64,000 bases of DNA, taken from assembly GCA_002435985.1 (NCBI GenBank), contig DIXD01000024.1:13167-77166 (forward strand), written 5' to 3'. This document shows, one piece after another, positions 1 to 9,214 of this stretch (positions within the stretch are counted from its first letter, which is position 1; the number at the start of each line of letters is the position of its first letter). The position numbers and the translations under genes are program-made. The notes under the pieces are model-generated. The model saw only the letters and a list, made by a program, of their open reading frames with translations. It was not told the DNA's origin and made no database searches. This DNA is from Spirochaetaceae bacterium UBA6089. GTDB taxonomy: Bacteria; Spirochaetota; Spirochaetia; Treponematales; Rectinemataceae.

Positions 1-21
1 AAAATATTGGTGGAATTATAT

Positions 22-1791
22 ATGGAAAAGACACAAGACGCGATGGACCTCGGCGGAGGATTCTTTCGGGTTGGAGCATCTCAGCTTGTTGGAGAACTTC
101 AGTCGAACATCTATCTTCTCGTCGATGATGGCGAGGCCGTATTGTTTGGGCCAGGCGCAATGGTGAATTTCGATAAATTGAAAGAGAATATTCTTAAATA
201 CGCTTCTCTTCGACCGCTCAGAGCCATTGTCGTCCACCAACAGGAACCGAGTTCATCTTCTGCGCTCATATATCTCGAAAAAGAAGGTGCACGCGCCACT
301 GTCGTCACGCATTGGCGCACCTGGGGTCAGCTTCGTTTCTACGGGCTTTCCAGTCAGCCTTATTTCATCGACGAGCATGGTTGGGTCCTGCGTCTCTCAT
401 CGGGCAGGGTGCTGCAGTTTATTCCGACGCCATATCTGTATCAGCCGGGAGCTTTTGCCACGTACGACAGGACCACAAAGACCCTCCTTACGGGGGCACT
501 CCTTTCATCGTATTCAGAGAGCATGGCGCTTTATGCGGACGACACGCAGTTCTTGGATCGGTTGAAGACCTTTCACCGGCAGAACATGCCCTCAAGAGAA
601 TTGCTTGCCCCAGTGATGCAGGTCCTTTCGAACTGGGACATTGAGCGCATAATGCCCTCCTACGGTCCCATCATTCGAAGCGACGTCAAGCGAATCTTTT
701 CTGAACTGGCTAAAGTGGAGTGCGGAGTGCTTTTACGTACCGAGGGATCTGAGGTTGCCTATGCAGGTATGGAACAGAGTGGTGCGACGACTGCCGAAGT
801 GACACGTCTCAAGCAGGAGCTGGAGACGCTGCGCAGACTGAATGAAGAGTTACAGCATAGCATCGAAGTCTCCAAAGATCGTGCGATTCGCGATCCGATG
901 ACGGGCTTGTATTCGGAGACTTTCTATAACTCTTTTATCGATGAAGATATCGCAATAAGAATTTCCGAGTCTGGACCGGAAGGCCACGTGCTCGCGGTGT
1001 TTGGCATCGATGAAAACATCGCCCAAATCGAGTACAAGTATGGCTCGCGCGAGGTGGAGGCGCTCCTGCGTGGTGTTGCGAGGATTATCGAGGAGCATTT
1101 GCCCAAAACAGCGATGGCCTTCAGACTCCATGGTGCCACCATGGCTGTCTGGATACCCGAAATTCTATTCGACAAGGCGATAGCCTTATGTGATACCATT
1201 CGTTATCAAATCGAAACGTCGAAGAGTTTCGTCGAGCCGGTCACCGTGTCGGTTGGTATCGCGACGCTCGAGGAAGTGACGAACATACAGCCTGAGCTTG
1301 AAAAAATGGCAGCAGATATAACCGACCTCGGCATCCGTCGTCTTCGTCTTGCACGGCGCCAGGGAGGGAATATTGTCTATTTTACTTCGGATGAAGAGAA
1401 TGAGAGCGAGGTGAAGGCGCACATTCTCATCGTCGATGACGACGAGGTCAATCTCGATGTGCTCAAAACCTATCTCAGCAATGAAGGCTATTCTATTTTG
1501 TCAGCTACCGACGGACAAGAGGCGCTCAACATCGTGGGGAAAGAGATTGTCGATCTTGTGATTTCGGAGTTGATGGTCCCTAAACTCGATGCATATTCCT
1601 TGAAAGAAGCATTACTCTCCAAAACAGCGACAAAGGATATCCCGATCGTCCTCATCTCGCACCTCAAGACCGAGGTCAGCATTCGTCGTGCACATGGACT
1701 CGGGATCACCTACTATTTACAAAAACCGATCATCCTTGAGGAATTATTGGGAATCGTGCAGAATCTCACTCGTGTAGGCAGTGGTTTATGA
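22..1791 (+). CDS. Multidomain signalling protein: degenerate ODP/MBL-fold domain, coiled coil, degenerate GGDEF domain, atypical REC domain
   Basis: N-terminal ODP/flavodiiron-like MBL fold (NIYLLVDDGEAVL, THWRT, FIPTPYL, FH..MPS). RDPMTGLY marks the GGDEF start but the motif reads LHGAT. C-terminal REC has ILIVDDD and KP, with Glu at the phospho-Asp position. ATG at 22 follows GGTGGA (ORF track starts at TTG 7). Confidence 0.85.
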   Translation: MEKTQDAMDLGGGFFRVGASQLVGELQSNIYLLVDDGEAVLFGPGAMVNFDKLKENILKYASLRPLRAIVVHQQEPSSSSALIYLEKEGARATVVTHWRTWGQLRFYGLSSQPYFIDEHGWVLRLSSGRVLQFIPTPYLYQPGAFATYDRTTKTLLTGALLSSYSESMALYADDTQFLDRLKTFHRQNMPSRELLAPVMQVLSNWDIERIMPSYGPIIRSDVKRIFSELAKVECGVLLRTEGSEVAYAGMEQSGATTAEVTRLKQELETLRRLNEELQHSIEVSKDRAIRDPMTGLYSETFYNSFIDEDIAIRISESGPEGHVLAVFGIDENIAQIEYKYGSREVEALLRGVARIIEEHLPKTAMAFRLHGATMAVWIPEILFDKAIALCDTIRYQIETSKSFVEPVTVSVGIATLEEVTNIQPELEKMAADITDLGIRRLRLARRQGGNIVYFTSDEENESEVKAHILIVDDDEVNLDVLKTYLSNEGYSILSATDGQEALNIVGKEIVDLVISELMVPKLDAYSLKEALLSKTATKDIPIVLISHLKTEVSIRRAHGLGITYYLQKPIILEELLGIVQNLTRVGSGL

Positions 1792-4700
1792 CAATTCCGT
1801 CTGAGTATTTGCTCGGTGCGGTCATACTCTTCTTATGGTTCATGTTGTATGTAGCCATCAGTATCTTTCTCAACAAAGCAAGGGTGACGATCCACCTAGA
1901 AAATCTCAAGAGTGAGCTTCGCCAGCTTCCTCAGCTTTTTGCGCCTTCATATGAACAGAATCCGCGAAAAATGCGGTCGCTTCTAGCATATGTTCTCTAC
2001 CTGACTCAGAACATCAAATTGCCCATGCGACAGCAGCATATCTTCAATACTACTTCAGTGCAGTATTTCGAAAGGGGGCAGATACGTCGCATTGCCCGCG
2101 GCAATCGATTCGTCAGGATGAGTGCCGCAAGACACCTTTCGAACATCAACACCGACACTGCGCGGAAAGCTATAGAGAAGGCGCTCATCAAGGAAAAGCA
2201 TTTTCCCACGAAACTATATCTCGCGAACGCGCTTGCGGATGTCGGCGATCCTCGCTCGCTCTATGTCCTCATTCAGAGCCTCTATGGTTCTCATTATTGG
2301 TACCGGAACAAGGTCAACATGCTTATTGCGTCGTATGGCGATCGGGTCAAGGAAGTAATAGGCGGCTATTTCTGGAAGAAAGATATCGAGATCCAAGATT
2401 TGCTCGTCGATCTTGCCGGTTCGATTCCGACCGAAGAATTTAGAGACTATCTCATCGATATCATCCAGCACGGTTCGCTCGAAGTAGGCAGGCTGGAGAA
2501 GATTACTGCACAACTGCCGACAAAATGCTGCTATTACTGTGTGCATGGGCGGCAAGAAGCAGACGATTTGCACCGTCAGTGCCCTTATAAAAGAATAGTG
2601 CCCAACAACTTTCGCTGTTTCCGGTATCGCACCCTTGTTACGAGCCTTTCGCCAGCCTCAAATTTTCACCGTATCATGATCCGTGCTGGGGAAACGCTCG
2701 AAAAATATTATCCACAGGTACTGTATTCGGACTACTACCTCGAACATGTCGACAAAGATATTCGGTCGATTGCGGTTCGCGCCTTAGGCCGAATGCCGCG
2801 CCTCGAGAATCTTTACAGACTTATCGAATACCTTGAGCGAGAGGATACGACCGCGGCCGCACGCGAGGGCTTGCGCAACCTTCTCGATCATCATCCTGCA
2901 TTTATCGTGCAGCTGATTCAAGCCTTTCAGGATTCGCACGGTATTTTACACAACAGGCTCGCCGAGGTCCTTTCCAATAGGATCGAATACATTATCACCA
3001 AACTTTTAAGTCATGAACGCACCGTCGCAACAGCGATACTCAATGAGCTAATCTCGATGGGCAGAGTTTCGGAGATTATTGAATTTTTGAAGCGCAACAA
3101 GAATGTCGAGCTCGAAGACAATCTCATTTTAGTCCTCAAACCAAGACTTTTGGACAATGAACATTTAGCAAAAGAGTGCAGTCTTTTCCTGCCAGACCGT
3201 ATACTCGACAAGTTAGGGCTGGAGCGAATTTTGCCCCAAGCACAAAAGCGGGAAGAAAAAATCGACAAAAAGTTGACTCGCCGACTCTATGGAATCCTGG
3301 CCTTTGCGCTCGGCTTCTTTCCTCTTCTCTATGTGTTGGGTTATTACGACAGGCTGGGCACGATGCCCCTCATCCAGCACCTGAAGTATTTTGTCTTGAA
3401 CTTCAATGTGAATTTTGCCTATTATGCGATAGCCGTCAATCTGATATACATCATTCTTCTTTTCCTTTCGAAACTGAACATTGCGCGCGCTACCAAACTG
3501 TGGGAGCTCAAAAATATGAGCATGCTCTTCAAGCCGCGCATGCTTCCCTCGGTATCGATCATCGCACCTGCGTATAACGAGGAGACGACGATCATCGAGA
3601 GCGCGAATTCGCTCTTGAGTTTGAAATATCCGGATTTCGAACTCGTCATCGTCAACGATGGCTCCAAGGACAACACACTCAAGACGCTCATCGACTATTT
3701 CGACTTGAAAAAGACCGACTTTTCTTTACACGAGCGCCTGCAGCATTATCCAATCCGTGGTATTTATACCAATCCCCGCATTCCGAGCCTCATCGTGGTC
3801 GACAAGGAAAATGGGGGCAAGGCGGACACGCTGAATGCAGGCATCAATGTTGCATCCAAGGAATATTTCTGCGGTATCGACGCAGATTCTCTTCTCGAAT
3901 CCGATGCCCTACTTAAGATCGCCTCGCTCACGCTGGATTATGGCGTCGAGACTCCCGCACTGGGCGGCAACGTCTTTCCCATCAACGGATGCAAGGTCGA
4001 CAAAGGGAAAATCGAGAAAATCGGCGTTCCCAAGCACTGGCTCGCTCGCCTCCAAATGGTCGAATATATGCGCGCATTTATGTGCGGTCGCCTCGGTTGG
4101 GACTATATAAATTCGCTTTTGATCATATCGGGGGCCTTCGGCCTTTTCAGAAAGGATAGGGTGATTTTGGTCGGCGGCTACCTCACAAGTAGGGGCAAAT
4201 ACCAAACGGATACCGTCGGGGAGGATATGGAACTCGTCGTGCGTATTGCCCGCCATATGCATGAGTCGAAGCGGCCATATCGCATAAGTTATGCTTTTAA
4301 CGCCAATTGCTGGACTGAAGTGCCGGAAAGCATGTCGAGTCTGCAGAAACAGCGTAACCGTTGGCAGCGTGGGCTCATCGACATCATGTACTTTCATCGT
4401 AAACTTATTTTCAACCCATCGTATGGGCTCATGGGTATGGTCGGTATGCCCTACTATCTCATATTCGAGATGATTGGACCCCTCTTTGAAATGCAGGGAT
4501 ATCTTATGGTGATCGTCGCGGCGCTATTCGGTATGCTCAGCGTTCGGCTTGCTCTTCTTCTCTTCTTTGCCTCTGTGTTGATGGGGATTTTCATCTCGGT
4601 CTCTTCGATAAAAATAGCCGAGTCGCTCAATGTCTATTTTAATTACCGTGATACTATCAAGCTCGTGTGGACATCGATCATCGAAAATTTTGGTCCGCGG

Positions 4701-4835
4701 CAATTGTTTTCCATGTGGCGGGTGATCGGCTTTGTGCGGGCAATGCAAAAGCCTCGAGGATGGCAAAAGTTCGAGCGCAGAGGTTTTAAGGACAACGACC
4801 GAAAGGATGGTGCCATGGGAGGAGCGCAGCAATGA
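1788..4835 (+). CDS. HEAT-repeat / processive family-2 glycosyltransferase fusion (putative polysaccharide synthase)
   Basis: N-terminal TM and HEAT-like repeats (VRMSAARHL, IRSIAVRALG), two TMs, then GT2 motifs PAYNE, VNDGSKD, GGKADTLN, DADS, SGAFGLFRK, GEDMEL, QRNRW, followed by C-terminal TMs. ATGA overlap with the upstream gene. Confidence 0.9.
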   Translation: MTIPSEYLLGAVILFLWFMLYVAISIFLNKARVTIHLENLKSELRQLPQLFAPSYEQNPRKMRSLLAYVLYLTQNIKLPMRQQHIFNTTSVQYFERGQIRRIARGNRFVRMSAARHLSNINTDTARKAIEKALIKEKHFPTKLYLANALADVGDPRSLYVLIQSLYGSHYWYRNKVNMLIASYGDRVKEVIGGYFWKKDIEIQDLLVDLAGSIPTEEFRDYLIDIIQHGSLEVGRLEKITAQLPTKCCYYCVHGRQEADDLHRQCPYKRIVPNNFRCFRYRTLVTSLSPASNFHRIMIRAGETLEKYYPQVLYSDYYLEHVDKDIRSIAVRALGRMPRLENLYRLIEYLEREDTTAAAREGLRNLLDHHPAFIVQLIQAFQDSHGILHNRLAEVLSNRIEYIITKLLSHERTVATAILNELISMGRVSEIIEFLKRNKNVELEDNLILVLKPRLLDNEHLAKECSLFLPDRILDKLGLERILPQAQKREEKIDKKLTRRLYGILAFALGFFPLLYVLGYYDRLGTMPLIQHLKYFVLNFNVNFAYYAIAVNLIYIILLFLSKLNIARATKLWELKNMSMLFKPRMLPSVSIIAPAYNEETTIIESANSLLSLKYPDFELVIVNDGSKDNTLKTLIDYFDLKKTDFSLHERLQHYPIRGIYTNPRIPSLIVVDKENGGKADTLNAGINVASKEYFCGIDADSLLESDALLKIASLTLDYGVETPALGGNVFPINGCKVDKGKIEKIGVPKHWLARLQMVEYMRAFMCGRLGWDYINSLLIISGAFGLFRKDRVILVGGYLTSRGKYQTDTVGEDMELVVRIARHMHESKRPYRISYAFNANCWTEVPESMSSLQKQRNRWQRGLIDIMYFHRKLIFNPSYGLMGMVGMPYYLIFEMIGPLFEMQGYLMVIVAALFGMLSVRLALLLFFASVLMGIFISVSSIKIAESLNVYFNYRDTIKLVWTSIIENFGPRQLFSMWRVIGFVRAMQKPRGWQKFERRGFKDNDRKDGAMGGAQQ

Positions 4836-7800
4836 AAATCCGCAACAAAGAATATGTGAAGGTTTCTCTTCTTTGGGTCTTCGGCATATTCATATTTGTT
4901 CTATTTACGGTGCTCATTGCCTCTCCCTTTATCCTCTGGATTATGCAGCCCTACCGTCAGCTCGATATCTGGGTCGTCGACAAAACTGTGCCGTACCCGG
5001 ATTTTAGAGAGCACGCGGGCCTGTTTTGGCTGCTGAACAATGAGAAGATCTCCAAGCCGGGTACGAAGGTGTTGTACGATGTGCGAACGGATTACTACGG
5101 ATTTTATCCCTTTGCCAAGGATGAGTGGCGGACCATCCCGATACCTCGGGGTGCAAAAAGGCCTGACCTCATTTATATCGCGGATACCTATGGTGTCTAT
5201 CGCGACGATTACATGCAGAAAAAGCTCCCGAATGATTTTTCTTCGATCATATACGGCGGCTTAGACAATGATGACTATACTACCATCCAGGAGTCTCTGG
5301 GCGATGGGAACACACTTATCGCCGAGTTCAACACTGCGGCGTCGCCGACCAATGGCAGGGATCGGGCACTTTTTGGCCGTCTTATAGGACTTAAATGGTA
5401 TGGATGGATAGGGAATTATTACGAAAGCCTCGCGAAGAACGGCGGTGTTCCCGACTGGGTCGTCGAGAATTGGGAGACCGAAAGAAACCAGATATGGGAA
5501 TATTCGGGACGAGGCATCGTGCTGCTCGACGAGGGTGGCAGGGTCGAGGTACTCACTGAGCAAGAAGACATCGGCAAGAACGGAATGAAAGTGGTATTCG
5601 AGCAACAGTGGGCTAAGACGATCGGCATACAGAAGCCTACTTCATACCGTTACTGGTTCGAATGGGTAAGTACCGATCCACTTGTCGAGGAAATCGCACA
5701 CTATGATCTCGATTTGACTCCTTCTGGAAAGCACAAGCTCGACGCCCTGGGGTTGCCCAATGTTTTTCCCGCAGTGGTACGATTCAAGAACAATCAATGT
5801 ACCAGCTGGTATTTTGCAGGCGACTTCGCTGATCTACAGTTTTCGGGTACCACCTACCGTATGAGGGGCATCCAGACCATAAAGCGCGTGCTGGCCGACG
5901 ACACCGTGGACAACAACAGCTATTTCTTTTGGAACGTGTATGCACCACTCATGCATTACATTCTCTCCACCATTGAACGACACAAGGTAGATGCGGAGGC
6001 GACGATGAAACCGCCCGAGCTGCAGGTAAATGTACGGGCGGTAAAAGAAGGCTTCCAGTTGAAATCGACAGAAGGAGAATGGCGTACGATCTTTCTCCGC
6101 AGCGTTAACCTGGGTATCGCCGAGCCGGGGAAATATTTTACGAATTTTCCTTCCGACAGCGATACCTATGTGCGCTGGCTTGAGGATATAGGCAGACTTG
6201 GGGCGAATACGGTGCGCGTCTATACCTTGTTGCCACCGGAATTCTACCGCGCGCTCAAGATCTATAACCAGACCCATCCGGACAGACCCCTCTTTTTGTT
6301 GCAGGAGATATGGCCCGAAGAGCACCCGCCCGGCAACGATTATCTGCAGCCTGCATACCAGGAAGCGTATTTGAAGGAAATACAGTATGCCATCGATGCG
6401 GTGTACGGCAGAGCGAATGTTCCCCAGCGTACGGGGCGTGCGTGGGGTTTGTATTCCGTGGATGTCTCGCAGTGGCTCATAGGCTGGCTTGTGGGCAGAG
6501 AGCTCGAAAGCGCCGAAGTAATGCAGACCGATGCATCTCATCAAGGTGTGACGTATACCGGCAACTATGTGTCGGCAGGGCAGGGGGCCTCGCCGACAGA
6601 GGTGTGGCTCGCAGCGTCGCTCGATGCGGCGGCGATGGCGGAGGCGGAACGCTACGGGACTTTACACCCTGTGGGCATCGTGAGCTGGCCTACATTGGAT
6701 CCCCTCGAGCATGATACGGAGTGGGATCCCGAAACAGGCAAACGTAACCGCTGGAATGACCGAGCGAGTGTCTCGATAGAGCATCTCGATGTCACCGAAA
6801 AGATGGGCGCAGGGCTCTTCGGTGCCTATCATATTTACCCAAACTATCCGGACTTCATCGTCAACGAACCTGCCTATGATAGGTACCACGATCAATTCGG
6901 CGTACTGCGGTACGGGGGCTATCTCGAGGAATTCATGACGACGCACACTCGCTACCCCGCCGTTGTTGCGGAATTTGGCATGGCTAACGGCGCGGGGGTG
7001 GCACATATCTCATCCGACGGGCTCAACCATGGAGGCGTCGACGAGACCACTGCCGGCAGGGATATTCTGCGCATGTATACGGCTATCCAAAAGACAGGGT
7101 ACGCAGGTGCATCGATCTTTGAGTTCATGGATGAGTGGGCAAAGAAAACCTGGGTTACCGAACCTTTTATGATACCCTTCGATCGCAGAGTCTTGTGGCA
7201 TAATGTCGTCGATCCCGAGCAGAATTACGGCCTCATCGCCAACGAGGCAGTGCCACCCACGCTCATTGAGCAGCAAATTCAAGGGATCGAGGTGTTGTCG
7301 GATCTAGAGGTTATGCACGACGCCTCGTATCTCTATCTCACGCTCCGGCTGGCGGGATTGAAGTCGCCGACGGAGTATGAAATTCTCCTTGGTATCGATA
7401 CCTATGACCGCACGCTGGGACAGATGCGCTGGCCCGGGAATTTAGACAAGACGGCCTCGGGGTTGGAATTCCTTCTCGATATCAAAAACAATGAGGCTAG
7501 ATTGTTGGTTATTCCATCGTACAATATCGCCTCATCGAAATACGCGTCGACCCTTCGCCGCGACGGCATGTTTGAAGAAATCAGTATGCTGGTCAACGGT
7601 ACAGTCACGACGAAAGATGGCAGAGTCATACCCGAAAAGCGCTTCGATGCCTCACATATGCGGCAGGGATCCTTCGATGAAGCCGGTAATCTCTGGTACG
7701 TCGAAGGGAATTCGATCCATGTACGCATACCGTGGAATCGTCTCAACGTGACGGATCCCTCTTCGCTCAGAGTGCTGCACGACACACGAAATATAGGCTC

Positions 7801-8065
7801 GCCCGAAACGGATATGCTCAGGACGACACGCACGGACGGCTTTGTGTTCGATGCGCGCGTACTCGATCCCGCGACGCGAGCACAGGTGGGGAGCCTAAAC
7901 GCAAATACGGGCTCTCCCTATATGTGGCAAGGATGGGAGGAGACCCCTCCATACCGTAAACGGATCAAGAAGAGCTACATGATAGTCCGCGATGCATGGG
8001 AGCAGGAAGCCGAAAAGGAAAAGGCCATCCTCGTCGATTTTGTAGGGACAAAAGAGGCGCGGTGA
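4832..8065 (+). CDS. Membrane-anchored fusion: uncharacterised N-terminal domain plus clan GH-A-like TIM-barrel glycoside hydrolase and C-terminal domain
   Basis: N-terminal TM; RSVNLG, GANTVRVYT, GRELE (putative acid/base), YHIYPNYP, VAEFG (putative nucleophile), FEFMDEW, EQNYGL. ATGA overlap. Confidence 0.75.
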   Translation: MKIRNKEYVKVSLLWVFGIFIFVLFTVLIASPFILWIMQPYRQLDIWVVDKTVPYPDFREHAGLFWLLNNEKISKPGTKVLYDVRTDYYGFYPFAKDEWRTIPIPRGAKRPDLIYIADTYGVYRDDYMQKKLPNDFSSIIYGGLDNDDYTTIQESLGDGNTLIAEFNTAASPTNGRDRALFGRLIGLKWYGWIGNYYESLAKNGGVPDWVVENWETERNQIWEYSGRGIVLLDEGGRVEVLTEQEDIGKNGMKVVFEQQWAKTIGIQKPTSYRYWFEWVSTDPLVEEIAHYDLDLTPSGKHKLDALGLPNVFPAVVRFKNNQCTSWYFAGDFADLQFSGTTYRMRGIQTIKRVLADDTVDNNSYFFWNVYAPLMHYILSTIERHKVDAEATMKPPELQVNVRAVKEGFQLKSTEGEWRTIFLRSVNLGIAEPGKYFTNFPSDSDTYVRWLEDIGRLGANTVRVYTLLPPEFYRALKIYNQTHPDRPLFLLQEIWPEEHPPGNDYLQPAYQEAYLKEIQYAIDAVYGRANVPQRTGRAWGLYSVDVSQWLIGWLVGRELESAEVMQTDASHQGVTYTGNYVSAGQGASPTEVWLAASLDAAAMAEAERYGTLHPVGIVSWPTLDPLEHDTEWDPETGKRNRWNDRASVSIEHLDVTEKMGAGLFGAYHIYPNYPDFIVNEPAYDRYHDQFGVLRYGGYLEEFMTTHTRYPAVVAEFGMANGAGVAHISSDGLNHGGVDETTAGRDILRMYTAIQKTGYAGASIFEFMDEWAKKTWVTEPFMIPFDRRVLWHNVVDPEQNYGLIANEAVPPTLIEQQIQGIEVLSDLEVMHDASYLYLTLRLAGLKSPTEYEILLGIDTYDRTLGQMRWPGNLDKTASGLEFLLDIKNNEARLLVIPSYNIASSKYASTLRRDGMFEEISMLVNGTVTTKDGRVIPEKRFDASHMRQGSFDEAGNLWYVEGNSIHVRIPWNRLNVTDPSSLRVLHDTRNIGSPETDMLRTTRTDGFVFDARVLDPATRAQVGSLNANTGSPYMWQGWEETPPYRKRIKKSYMIVRDAWEQEAEKEKAILVDFVGTKEAR

Positions 8066-8095: not shown

Positions 8096-9214
8096 ATGGA
8101 AGATCTACGACTTAGAAAACTCGCTCATCTCTTGGTGAATTACTCGACCAAGGTCAAGCCCGGCGACAGGGTGCTCATCGAAAATGTGAACCCTGAGCCC
8201 GATTTTCTGCGCCTGCTCATCGAGGAGGTACATGCGGCCGGCGGGCTCGCCTTCCTCTCCCTGCGGGATAGGCGGCTCGAGCGCACGCTTTTTATGAATG
8301 CGCCCGAGGAGCAGTTTGTGCTGCAGGCCGAATTCGAGCGCGCCCGCATGGAAGAAATGAATGTCTATATCGGCTTTACGAGCTTGCAGAACGCCTTCGC
8401 GTGGGAGGACCTACCGCAGGACAAAATCGAGCTCTATAATCGTCACATCTGGAAAAAAGTGCACATAGAGCGGCGCATCACCAACACCCGATGGGTCGTC
8501 CTGCGCTACCCGAGCGCGGCCATGGCCCAGAACGCCGGTATGAGCGAGGAGCGCTTCGAACAATTTTATTTTGATGTCTGCACCATGGACTATGCCAAGA
8601 TGTCCCGCGCCATGGACGCCCTCGTGGGCCTCCTCGAAAAGAGCGACAGGGTCCGCATCGTAGCGCCCGGCACGGACCTTGAATTCTCGATTGCGGGCAT
8701 GCCTGCGATCAAATGCGACGGCACCATGAATATCCCCGATGGTGAGGTCTACACCGCTCCTCTCCGCGAATCGGTGAATGGCGTGCTCAGTTACAACACG
8801 CCGAGCGAAAAGGATGGCTTCAAGTTCGAGAATATCGTCTTCGAGTTCGAGAAAGGCAAAATCGTCGACGCAAAAGCCAACGACACCGCGCGCATCAACA
8901 AGATTCTCGACATCGACGAGGGTGCGCGATATCTTGGTGAATTTTCATTCGGGCTCAACCCGTACATTACAAGGCCGATGCTCGAGACCCTGTTCGACGA
9001 AAAGATTGCAGGCTCACTGCACATCACACCCGGCAATTCGTACGACGACTGCGACAACGGCAACCATTCTGCCCTTCACTGGGACATCGTCCTTATGCAG
9101 GGTGCGGACTCGGGCGGCGGCGAGGTCTGGATCGACGGGGAACTGATACGCAAGGATGGCCTCTTCGTCGTGCCGGAGCTGCTCGCGCTGAATCCCGATG
9201 CCCTGAAAGGCTGA
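8096..9214 (+). CDS. Aminopeptidase, M29 family (AmpS/PepS-like)
   Basis: NIPDGEVYTAP, LGEFSFG, LFDEKIAGSLHITPG, SALHWD motifs. Confidence 0.93.
   Translation: MEDLRLRKLAHLLVNYSTKVKPGDRVLIENVNPEPDFLRLLIEEVHAAGGLAFLSLRDRRLERTLFMNAPEEQFVLQAEFERARMEEMNVYIGFTSLQNAFAWEDLPQDKIELYNRHIWKKVHIERRITNTRWVVLRYPSAAMAQNAGMSEERFEQFYFDVCTMDYAKMSRAMDALVGLLEKSDRVRIVAPGTDLEFSIAGMPAIKCDGTMNIPDGEVYTAPLRESVNGVLSYNTPSEKDGFKFENIVFEFEKGKIVDAKANDTARINKILDIDEGARYLGEFSFGLNPYITRPMLETLFDEKIAGSLHITPGNSYDDCDNGNHSALHWDIVLMQGADSGGGEVWIDGELIRKDGLFVVPELLALNPDALKG

Follow-up and report, generated by a model that had tools for sequence, protein, structure and literature searches.

Synthase-dependent polysaccharide systems such as those for cellulose, poly-N-acetylglucosamine (PNAG), alginate and Pel underlie biofilm formation, and to our knowledge all well-studied systems of this kind are switched by cyclic diguanylate (c-di-GMP). 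Here, a three-gene cluster is described which lies at the beginning of a 64,000-nucleotide stretch of DNA (hereafter the window; contig C86:13167-77166) from Spirochaetaceae bacterium UBA6089, a 1.72-Mb metagenome-assembled genome (MAG) that is 80% complete. The cluster encodes a soluble regulator (ORF1), a membrane-embedded family 2 glycosyltransferase (GT2) carrying an arm of HEAT repeats (ORF2) and a large membrane-anchored protein with a barrel of the glycoside hydrolase clan GH-A type (ORF3). It follows the same plan as Pga, Bcs, Pel and Pss/Yda, with other control parts, namely a HEAT adaptor and a di-iron sensor joined to dead signalling domains, and with a putative processing enzyme that is named in no database searched. 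The gene set is real and conserved. That it constitutes an undescribed synthase-dependent glycan machine, in which ORF1 controls the synthase by contact with the HEAT arm and ORF3 serves as chain-processing glycanase, is considered probable, the mechanism as such being plausible. The genes and their junctions are as follows:

22-1791, plus strand: ORF1, 589 amino acids (aa), soluble cytoplasmic regulator with degenerate ODP, GGDEF and REC domains in this order (Pfam; no transmembrane (TM) segment)
1788-1791, plus strand: ATGA stop/start overlap of ORF1 and ORF2 (sequence)
1788-4835, plus strand: ORF2, 1015 aa, synthase of the order TM-HEAT-TM-TM-GT2-TM (Pfam, NCBIfam, TM segments)
4832-4835, plus strand: ATGA stop/start overlap of ORF2 and ORF3, with the ribosome-binding site (RBS) GGAGGAG just 5' (sequence)
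4832-8065, plus strand: ORF3, 1077 aa, single-pass membrane protein with the N-terminus inside and a large extracytoplasmic part (homologues, AlphaFold model, TM prediction)

An earlier note, made from the letters of this DNA, had proposed three genes joined by ATGA overlaps and encoding an ODP/MBL-GGDEF-REC protein, a TM-HEAT-GT2 protein with intact processive motifs and a TM-anchored unknown domain followed by a GH-A barrel. This description holds in all its parts, the unknown domain being of GATase1-like fold. Its view that the set is undescribed and is without the parts that define Bcs, Pga/Ica or Pel was likewise supported: PilZ, BcsB, CE4 and GAF have no Pfam match in ORF1-3 at E <= 0.01, Polysacc_deac_1 is matched neither in ORF1-3 nor in the flanking genes, the GT2 falls far short of the cut-offs that the curated synthase families set, and literature searches found no published description of the gene set. 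New here are the structural assignment of ORF3, a split four-gene layout, fusions of the GT2-ORF3 and HEAT-GT2-ORF3 type, and a lineage-specific loss of sensor ligands.

Several described systems resemble individual parts of the cluster. PgaABCD and IcaADBC share with it a membrane-embedded processive GT2 (D, DxD, ED and QRxRW motifs) and an extracytoplasmic polymer-processing enzyme beside the synthase. In contrast to these systems, the cluster contains neither PgaD/IcaD nor a CE4 deacetylase or the PgaA porin, and its GT2 reaches 111 bits against a family cut-off of 422; it has a 430-aa HEAT arm and an ODP-GGDEF-REC partner where c-di-GMP is bound at PgaCD, and its hydrolase fold is GH157-like instead of GH153. 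The nearest analogue of ORF1 is BcsE of E. coli-type cellulose secretion, also a cytoplasmic protein with dead REC and GGDEF domains and an extra N-terminal domain, the likeness being seen at the level of domain superfamilies. BcsE shows the order N-terminal domain, REC, GGDEF and binds c-di-GMP at R415 and D418 of an RxxD I-site (PMC7439463), whereas ORF1 has the order ODP-GGDEF-REC and no RxxD. BcsE acts through protein contacts at the membrane, its partners being BcsQ/R/F; the same mode of action is presumed for ORF1, with the HEAT arm as presumed partner. PelD, Listeria PssE and Bacillus subtilis YdaK are degenerate GGDEF proteins encoded, as ORF1 is, beside a synthase and a glycoside hydrolase; they are membrane-bound c-di-GMP receptors acting through an I-site, whereas ORF1 is soluble and has none. 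The YdaJ and PssZ hydrolases are GH8 enzymes, and the PelA hydrolase belongs to GH166, in contrast to the GH157-like barrel of ORF3. DUF2194, tentatively taken to represent YdaL, gave no match in this genome nor in a B. subtilis control. In ydaJKLMN, the degenerate-GGDEF, synthase and hydrolase genes stand together (PMC13274460).

Two further relatives concern single domains. Stand-alone ODP proteins, known from Treponema denticola and Thermotoga maritima (PDB 6qrq, 6qnm), are cited as O2 sensors for chemotaxis (PMC7666581). The N-terminal domain of ORF1 is a clear member of this family, and the H/D/D, H and H positions are retained in most of its homologues; unlike the stand-alone proteins, it is fused to degenerate GGDEF and REC domains, and its partner is a polysaccharide synthase instead of a chemoreceptor. 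The ORF3 barrel resembles GH157 (LaGH157, PDB 9g4n; BcellWH2_01931), a family of endo-beta-1,3-glucanases (PMC10229575), in belonging to clan GH-A and in carrying Glu on strands 4 and 7. In contrast to GH157 enzymes, ORF3 has a TM anchor and, in its N-terminal part, a GATase1-like domain; its C-terminal region is of another kind, Arg replaces the Asn expected ahead of the acid/base, and the protein is encoded in a biosynthetic and not a catabolic operon.

Co-occurrence of regulator, synthase and ORF3

Carriers of the gene set amount to hundreds of species, most of them uncultured. For ORF3, hundreds of full-length homologues with 40-96% identity were found in Spirochaetota, Bacillota and Caldisericota, all labelled hypothetical, and conservation extends over the whole 1050 aa with 40-45% identity between phyla. 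The closest loci belong to Rectinema and other Spirochaetota MAGs. Patterns derived from ORF3 gave 528 relatives among 185,579 species-representative genomes, and its profile, run against 1.84 billion representatives, gave 2567 related clusters (1074 of them at E <= 1e-30), many of which share the barrel-plus-sandwich module only. Among 250 sampled genomes of the phylum, none contained a homologue of ORF3, which speaks of patchiness among those searched and not of absence.

In an ORF3-centred survey of the best 80 genome loci, the 48 whose two flanks each span 6.5 kb or more were counted and their neighbourhoods called by hand. The full triad of ODP-type regulator, fused HEAT-GT2 and ORF3 was present at 34 of them; at ten, a short GT2 (~470 aa) adjoins ORF3, and at four ORF3 stands alone. 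Six of the ten short-GT2 loci were examined, and in each a separate TM-HEAT protein of 350-390 aa is encoded directly upstream of the GT2, a split layout with HEAT as a gene of its own that occurs in some Bacillota and Caldisericota. The stand-alone HEAT gene is preceded by a GGDEF-REC regulator in three of these six loci, the Paenibacillus version being Hpt-REC-GGDEF-REC. The ODP-type regulator is always found with fused HEAT, whereas the split systems examined use a GGDEF-REC regulator without ODP. Split-type receivers inspected keep the phospho-acceptor Asp, except in Thermovenabulum, and the GGDEF motifs of these regulators vary between AGDEF or NGDEF and complete degeneracy. Where ORF3 stands alone, an orthologous GT2 is encoded at another site of the genome in three of four cases (E 1e-132 to 1e-210), one of these copies carrying an in-frame stop, and in both genomes whose surroundings were examined this distant GT2 has a HEAT gene and a GGDEF-REC regulator as neighbours.

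A regulator-centred survey gave a corresponding result. On metagenome contigs with enough flank, HEAT-GT2 follows directly downstream of the regulator in 28 out of 28 cases, with ORF3 also present in 23, and none of the contigs extending more than ~1 kb past an ODP-type regulator was without the synthase. Gene order varies by lineage, being 1-2-3 in most and 3-1-2 in Sphaerochaeta. Natural fusions were also found, one joining GT2 and the ORF3 module (P0185; hhalign 100%, with the GT2 profile matched at 41% identity) and another joining HEAT, GT2 and the ORF3 module (P0220; 40% identity over 690 aa). Others among the relatives of the ORF3 module occur as fusions with CE4 deacetylase or TPR, two components that exopolysaccharide systems typically have.

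The co-occurrence surveys, the split forms and the natural fusions together show a joint function of HEAT, GT2 and the ORF3 module, and they mark the ORF3 module as a recurrent part of exopolysaccharide systems. A catabolic role of ORF3, which was considered as well, is ruled against by its natural fusions to the synthase. The components co-occur across phyla, with full triads at 34 of 48 loci in the first survey and HEAT-GT2 next to the regulator on 28 of 28 contigs in the second, in support of the earlier note. Its picture of a compact three-gene machine built from fusions is correct for the window and too narrow for the family, in which four modules occur in at least two arrangements, this being one of them.

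Some loci deviate from these layouts. The orthologous GT2 of Caloramator australicus (L086/L087, G004:C33:43574-44979) is matched in two pieces and has an in-frame TAA, and that of Thermovenabulum (L084) contains one TAA; both may be broken genes or assembly errors. In a Treponema MAG (L024:6225-13078), the matches to regulator (372 aa), synthase (758 aa) and ORF3 (split hits) are all fragmentary, and this copy of the cluster seems to be decaying.

Domains of the three proteins

The synthase ORF2 is composed of the following parts:

1965-3257, plus strand: presumably cytoplasmic HEAT-repeat arm, ~aa 60-490, between TM1 (8-26) and TM2/TM3 (500-518, 543-561) (Pfam HEAT_2, PDB alphaRep matches)
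2526-2627, plus strand: insert with four cysteines (Cys4; CxxC...C...C) interrupting the HEAT repeats (kept by most fused homologues)
3276-4787, plus strand: membrane-embedded processive GT2 core, ~aa 497-1000, with D/DxD/ED/QxxRW motifs (invariant motifs; profile against hyaluronan synthase (HAS) and BcsA structures)

Pfam places HEAT_2 at residues 108-173 and GT2 models at 590-931, and hydrophobic segments are found at 8-26, 500-518, 543-561, about 899-917 and about 921-939. The motifs NDGSKD, IDADS (DxD), GEDME (ED) and QRxRW (here QRNRW) are invariant in 16 aligned homologues, and a profile of the GT2 core aligns with the structures of Chlorella-virus hyaluronan synthase and BcsA. With these motifs and the flanking TM helices, ORF2 belongs to the processive membrane GT2 enzymes of the BcsA/HAS/PgaC/NodC superfamily. 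Within NCBIfam, its best match is PgaC_IcaA (TIGR03937) with 110.9 bits versus a cut-off of 422.3, and the CelA model covers residues 539-631 only, with 33 bits versus 699. The HEAT arm is homologous to the stand-alone TM-HEAT proteins of the split systems. It is placed on the cytoplasmic side because the GT2 domain must face the cytoplasm and the two are separated by a pair of TM helices. The Cys4 insert is kept in fused synthases of the Rectinema type and of Treponemataceae, Acetobacterium and Oscillospiraceae, and is absent from the Sphaerochaeta type, the L013 clade and all stand-alone HEAT proteins; it may represent a Zn or Fe-S site.

In ORF3, the following parts were assigned:

4949-5911, plus strand: GATase1-like (GH42 domain B / ThuA / GIFT-like) domain, ~aa 40-360 (separate model pLDDT 88.6; VIA)
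6020-7231, plus strand: (beta/alpha)8 barrel of the clan GH-A type, ~aa 397-800 (Foldseek, VIA)
6500-6502, plus strand: E557, candidate acid/base, two residues past predicted strand 4 (VGRE; invariant; model)
6971-6973, plus strand: E714, candidate nucleophile on strand 7 (VAEFG; invariant; model)
7232-7966, plus strand: C-terminal beta-sandwich region, ~aa 801-1045, then amphipathic helix 1047-1071 (AlphaFold model)

At the sequence level, ORF3 is without a Pfam match (even at E 10 on three pieces) or NCBIfam match, no PDB chain was matched by phmmer or by the ORF3 profile, and the protein atlas holds it in unnamed clusters only. Its AlphaFold (AF2) model, built on 35 sequences, has a pLDDT of 88.9 and a pTM of 0.88 and shows five parts, namely an N-terminal helix (2-38) which includes the single TM helix (residues 11-29), the GATase1-like domain, the (beta/alpha)8 barrel, the beta-sandwich and a terminal helix (1047-1071). 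Folded alone and compared with VIA, the GATase1-like domain matches GH42 domain B (Z 14.6), the GATase1-like protein 3rht (14.2), Agd3 (14.1) and PelA (9.1). The Cys-His-Glu triad of class I glutamine amidotransferases was looked for, and residues 40-390 of ORF3 contain no (nearly) invariant Cys.

For the barrel, the top Foldseek matches are GH157, GH2, GH35, GH39 PslG, GH158 and GH5. In VIA, the GH157 chain 9g4n_C is matched with Z 33.4 and an rmsd (root-mean-square deviation) of 2.4 A over 318 aligned residues, GH2 enzymes following at Z 26-28, so that GH157 leads the next family by five to six Z. Identity to 9g4n is 15%, and this structure was found by neither phmmer nor profile. The model combines the barrel with one Glu near the end of strand 4 and another on strand 7, as is characteristic of clan GH-A, and a GH5-like signature (R462, H667, Y669, E714 and W769) is invariant in 35 aligned homologues. 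Hence, ORF3 is predicted from its model to be a hydrolase, with E557 and E714 as putative catalytic residues. Distant ORF3 relatives have a CE4 deacetylase in place of the sandwich region or after it. At some metagenome loci (L119, L121, L127, L128, L142), the ORF3 relative downstream of HEAT-GT2 covers only residues ~400-1058, that is, barrel and sandwich without the GATase1-like domain.

The regulator ORF1 contains three domains:

97-666, plus strand: ODP (di-iron MBL-fold) domain, aa 26-215, metal-ligand positions substituted (Pfam PF19583, 1.9e-38; alignment to 6qrq)
883-1284, plus strand: degenerate GGDEF domain, aa 288-421, with RLHGATM for RxGGEEF and PKTA for the RxxD I-site (Pfam; PleD alignment)
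1423-1758, plus strand: pseudo-receiver domain, aa 468-579, phospho-acceptor Asp replaced by Glu (VISELMVPK; aligned to PleD D53)

Hydrophobic segments are absent from ORF1, and the Pfam E-values of the GGDEF and REC domains are 2.8e-10 and 1.2e-18, respectively. Membership of the ODP domain in PF19583 is clear (132.7 bits versus a cut-off of 27.2), and PDB 6qrq is found by phmmer at 1.8e-19. In the alignment to 6qrq, the H/D/D, H and H positions, the presumed iron ligands of this fold, read Q/E/S, Y and Y in ORF1; its motifs are HQQEPS, YLYQPG and PSYGP, where 6qrq and most homologues have HQDPD, LH..G and QHG. Among 43 ODP-type homologues from related loci, which were aligned for a motif survey, most keep HHQDPD, YLHFPG and PQHGS. 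These ligand motifs are intact in nearly all lineages; every member of the small clade of the window has lost them, and L010, which is more distant, retains the third one only. The ligand-less domain is under constraint, since it is still 59-82% identical within the clade. ORF1 is also shorter than most homologues (589 versus ~670 aa), a conserved segment of ~85 residues between ODP and GGDEF being missing in the window's clade and in the L013 clade.

The two signalling domains are degenerate throughout. In the PleD alignment, GGEEF reads HGATM in ORF1 and the positions of the guanine-binding Asn and Asp are both Glu. GG(D/E)EF, the mark of diguanylate cyclases, is found in none of the 43 homologues, the motif being degenerate in all, and the I-site position is variable, with a conserved RxxD in none. 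The GGDEF score of ORF1 is 43.9 bits, whereas the other five GGDEF genes in this genome reach 141-160. At the position of PleD D53, where a phosphorylatable receiver carries Asp, all 43 homologues have Glu, and in ORF1 the acidic pair and the Ser/Thr and Lys positions are retained. The term pseudo-sensor, which the earlier note had used, is valid for the lineage of the window only and does not suit the majority of homologues with their ligand motifs in place. Because most homologues keep these motifs, the ODP-type regulators as a family are, as far as their sequences indicate, probably genuine O2/Fe sensors.

Proposed mechanism, polymer and competing explanations

In the proposed machine, ORF2 would polymerise a nucleotide-sugar in the cytoplasm and thread the chain through its own TM channel. 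The membrane-anchored, cytoplasmic HEAT arm of ~430 residues would act as adaptor between the soluble ORF1 and the synthase, and ORF1 would exert its control by direct contact, not by c-di-GMP or phosphorylation. A role of the arm as docking platform is favoured because split systems place a membrane-anchored HEAT gene between regulator and GT2, and because the type of regulator tracks the form of HEAT (fused or split). As enzymatic and phospho-acceptor sites are dead family-wide while the sensor site is usually intact, the output of the regulator must be conformational. In most family members, ORF1 would thus combine a di-iron ODP sensor for O2 or Fe(II) with a dead GGDEF domain and a Glu-locked receiver, the input being probably O2 or Fe(II), as is established for stand-alone ODP (cited in PMC7666581). 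In the spirochaete lineage of the window, where the iron ligands are lost, ORF1 would be a constitutive or otherwise gated structural subunit; since the input site is gone, such a state is the probable one for the window copy. With a single helix at the N-terminus as its anchor and most of its mass in the periplasm, ORF3 would be a retaining endo-glycanase of a new, unnamed family and would trim, release or clear the growing chain in the way of BcsZ, PslG, PelA and PgaB.

Different hints exist as to the polymer. The first guess is a beta-glucan, possibly beta-1,3-linked, which is suggested by the GH157-like barrel together with a GH16 gene that adjoins the system in a number of Bacillota. This gene encodes a small TM-anchored protein and was found in Acetobacterium, Eubacteriaceae, Proteocatella and another Clostridia MAG. 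It is located, for example, at L045:4234-4935, recurs at L046, L050-L054 and L070, and stands just upstream of ORF3 at L053, L061 and L075; it thus takes two different positions relative to the system among Bacillota lineages. In the window's own 80%-complete genome, no such gene was found. As an alternative, a polymer with GlcNAc is suggested by the PgaC/IcaA-like score of the GT2 and by the CE4 fusions of distant ORF3 relatives.

A number of observations weigh against the machine as proposed. The contact between ORF1 and the HEAT arm is presumed from the gene set, and the correlated divergence of the three proteins (r 0.92-0.96) is also expected from shared ancestry alone. The window copy is without the sensor ligands and the ~85-aa segment between ODP and GGDEF, and its regulation may hence differ from the family norm. 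For ORF3, hydrolase activity is not assured, because Arg precedes the candidate acid/base E557 where GH-A enzymes usually have Asn, and because phmmer and profile searches found no sequence-level link to GH families. The polymer hints conflict, the GT2 and CE4 pointing to a GlcNAc type and the barrel to a beta-1,3-glucanase. Finally, no outer-membrane export component is encoded in or near the cluster of this diderm, and the polymer may stay periplasmic or its export may be encoded elsewhere.

Among the competing explanations, control by c-di-GMP in the manner of Pel, Pss, Yda or BcsE, with the degenerate GGDEF domain of ORF1 as the receptor that activates the synthase, would be in line with the I-site receptors PelD and BcsE, whose GGDEF domains are degenerate as well (PMC7439463). 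The genome contains five apparently intact GGDEF genes, some split-type regulators have a near-canonical AGDEF or NGDEF, and in Thermosyntropha lipolytica two genes, one for an HD_5 (HD-GYP-type) protein and one for a strongly scoring GGDEF protein (167 bits), follow directly downstream of the ORF3 homologue (L036:11748-14370), this pair being the only hint of a c-di-GMP link seen. However, the I-site of ORF1 reads PKTA and is conserved in none of the 43 ODP-type homologues, the guanine-binding residues of PleD are replaced by Glu, and the three proteins have no PilZ or GIL-type Pfam match. For want of an I-site, ORF1 was rejected as c-di-GMP receptor, and the explanation is judged unlikely. 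In a divergent PNAG-type (Pga/Ica) system, ORF2 would make poly-beta-1,6-GlcNAc and ORF3 would take the role of the PgaB glycosidase domain or of dispersin. PgaC_IcaA being the best curated match of the GT2, and distant ORF3 relatives being fused to CE4 deacetylases as in PgaB, this has some appeal. It is nevertheless improbable and was set aside, as the score stays below the cut-off (111 versus 422 bits) and the cluster has neither a CE4 deacetylase nor a small PgaD/IcaD-like gene; the barrel is nearest to GH157, and no PgaB or dispersin chains are among the listed structural matches, which is no exclusion.

The Arg in place of Asn leads to another alternative, namely that ORF3 is a non-catalytic co-synthase or scaffold comparable to BcsB, which guides the chain through periplasm or wall and uses its barrel as a glycan-binding module. 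Its conservation over 1050 aa between phyla and its anchoring in the membrane beside the synthase, to which it is even fused in some proteins, would suit such a function. In contrast, the invariance of E557, E714 and the GH5-like signature residues in 35 homologues and the barrel's very close resemblance in structure to an active glucanase (Z 33.4, rmsd 2.4 A) argue for catalysis, and a purely structural ORF3 is held to be very improbable. The contact-controlled machine with ORF3 as glycanase hence remains the preferred reading.

A more far-reaching version of the preferred reading is put forward tentatively, as a possibility rather than an expectation. The system would then represent a new class of synthase-dependent exopolysaccharide systems in which a di-iron ODP reports O2 or Fe(II) to the synthase via the HEAT adaptor, without second messenger or phosphorylation; ORF3 would found a polymer-dedicated GH family, the polymer would possibly be a beta-1,3-glucan, and the lineage of the window would be a variant in which the sensor is naturally dead. 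The carriers that could be named belong to lineages generally known as anaerobes, which an oxygen-protection role would fit. If true, a route from direct O2 or iron sensing to matrix production would exist in lineages mostly known as anaerobes, a new glycoside hydrolase family would be at hand, and the fused, split and sensor-dead forms would provide a natural series suited to dissecting the switch.

Gene layout and neighbours

ORF1 starts with ATG at position 22, preceded at a distance of 8 nt by the RBS GGTGGA. Upstream of the cluster, at 172 bp, cstA is encoded on the opposite strand. Downstream, ORF3 is followed after 30 bp by an M29 aminopeptidase gene (8096-9214), a small ORF and a convergent hsp20. 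No clear terminator was seen in the gap between ORF3 and the M29 gene, and co-transcription of the two is possible. Synteny of the M29 gene (68-93% identity) is restricted to Rectinema and Treponemataceae relatives, and the gene is absent at Bacillota and Sphaerochaeta loci. Given this limitation to close relatives, the aminopeptidase was rejected as part of the system and is probably an unrelated neighbour. The cluster also stands out in base composition, with a G+C content of 50.7% for positions 1-8000 of the window versus 55-58% in the other seven 8-kb blocks, a difference that could stem from horizontal acquisition or from membrane-protein composition.

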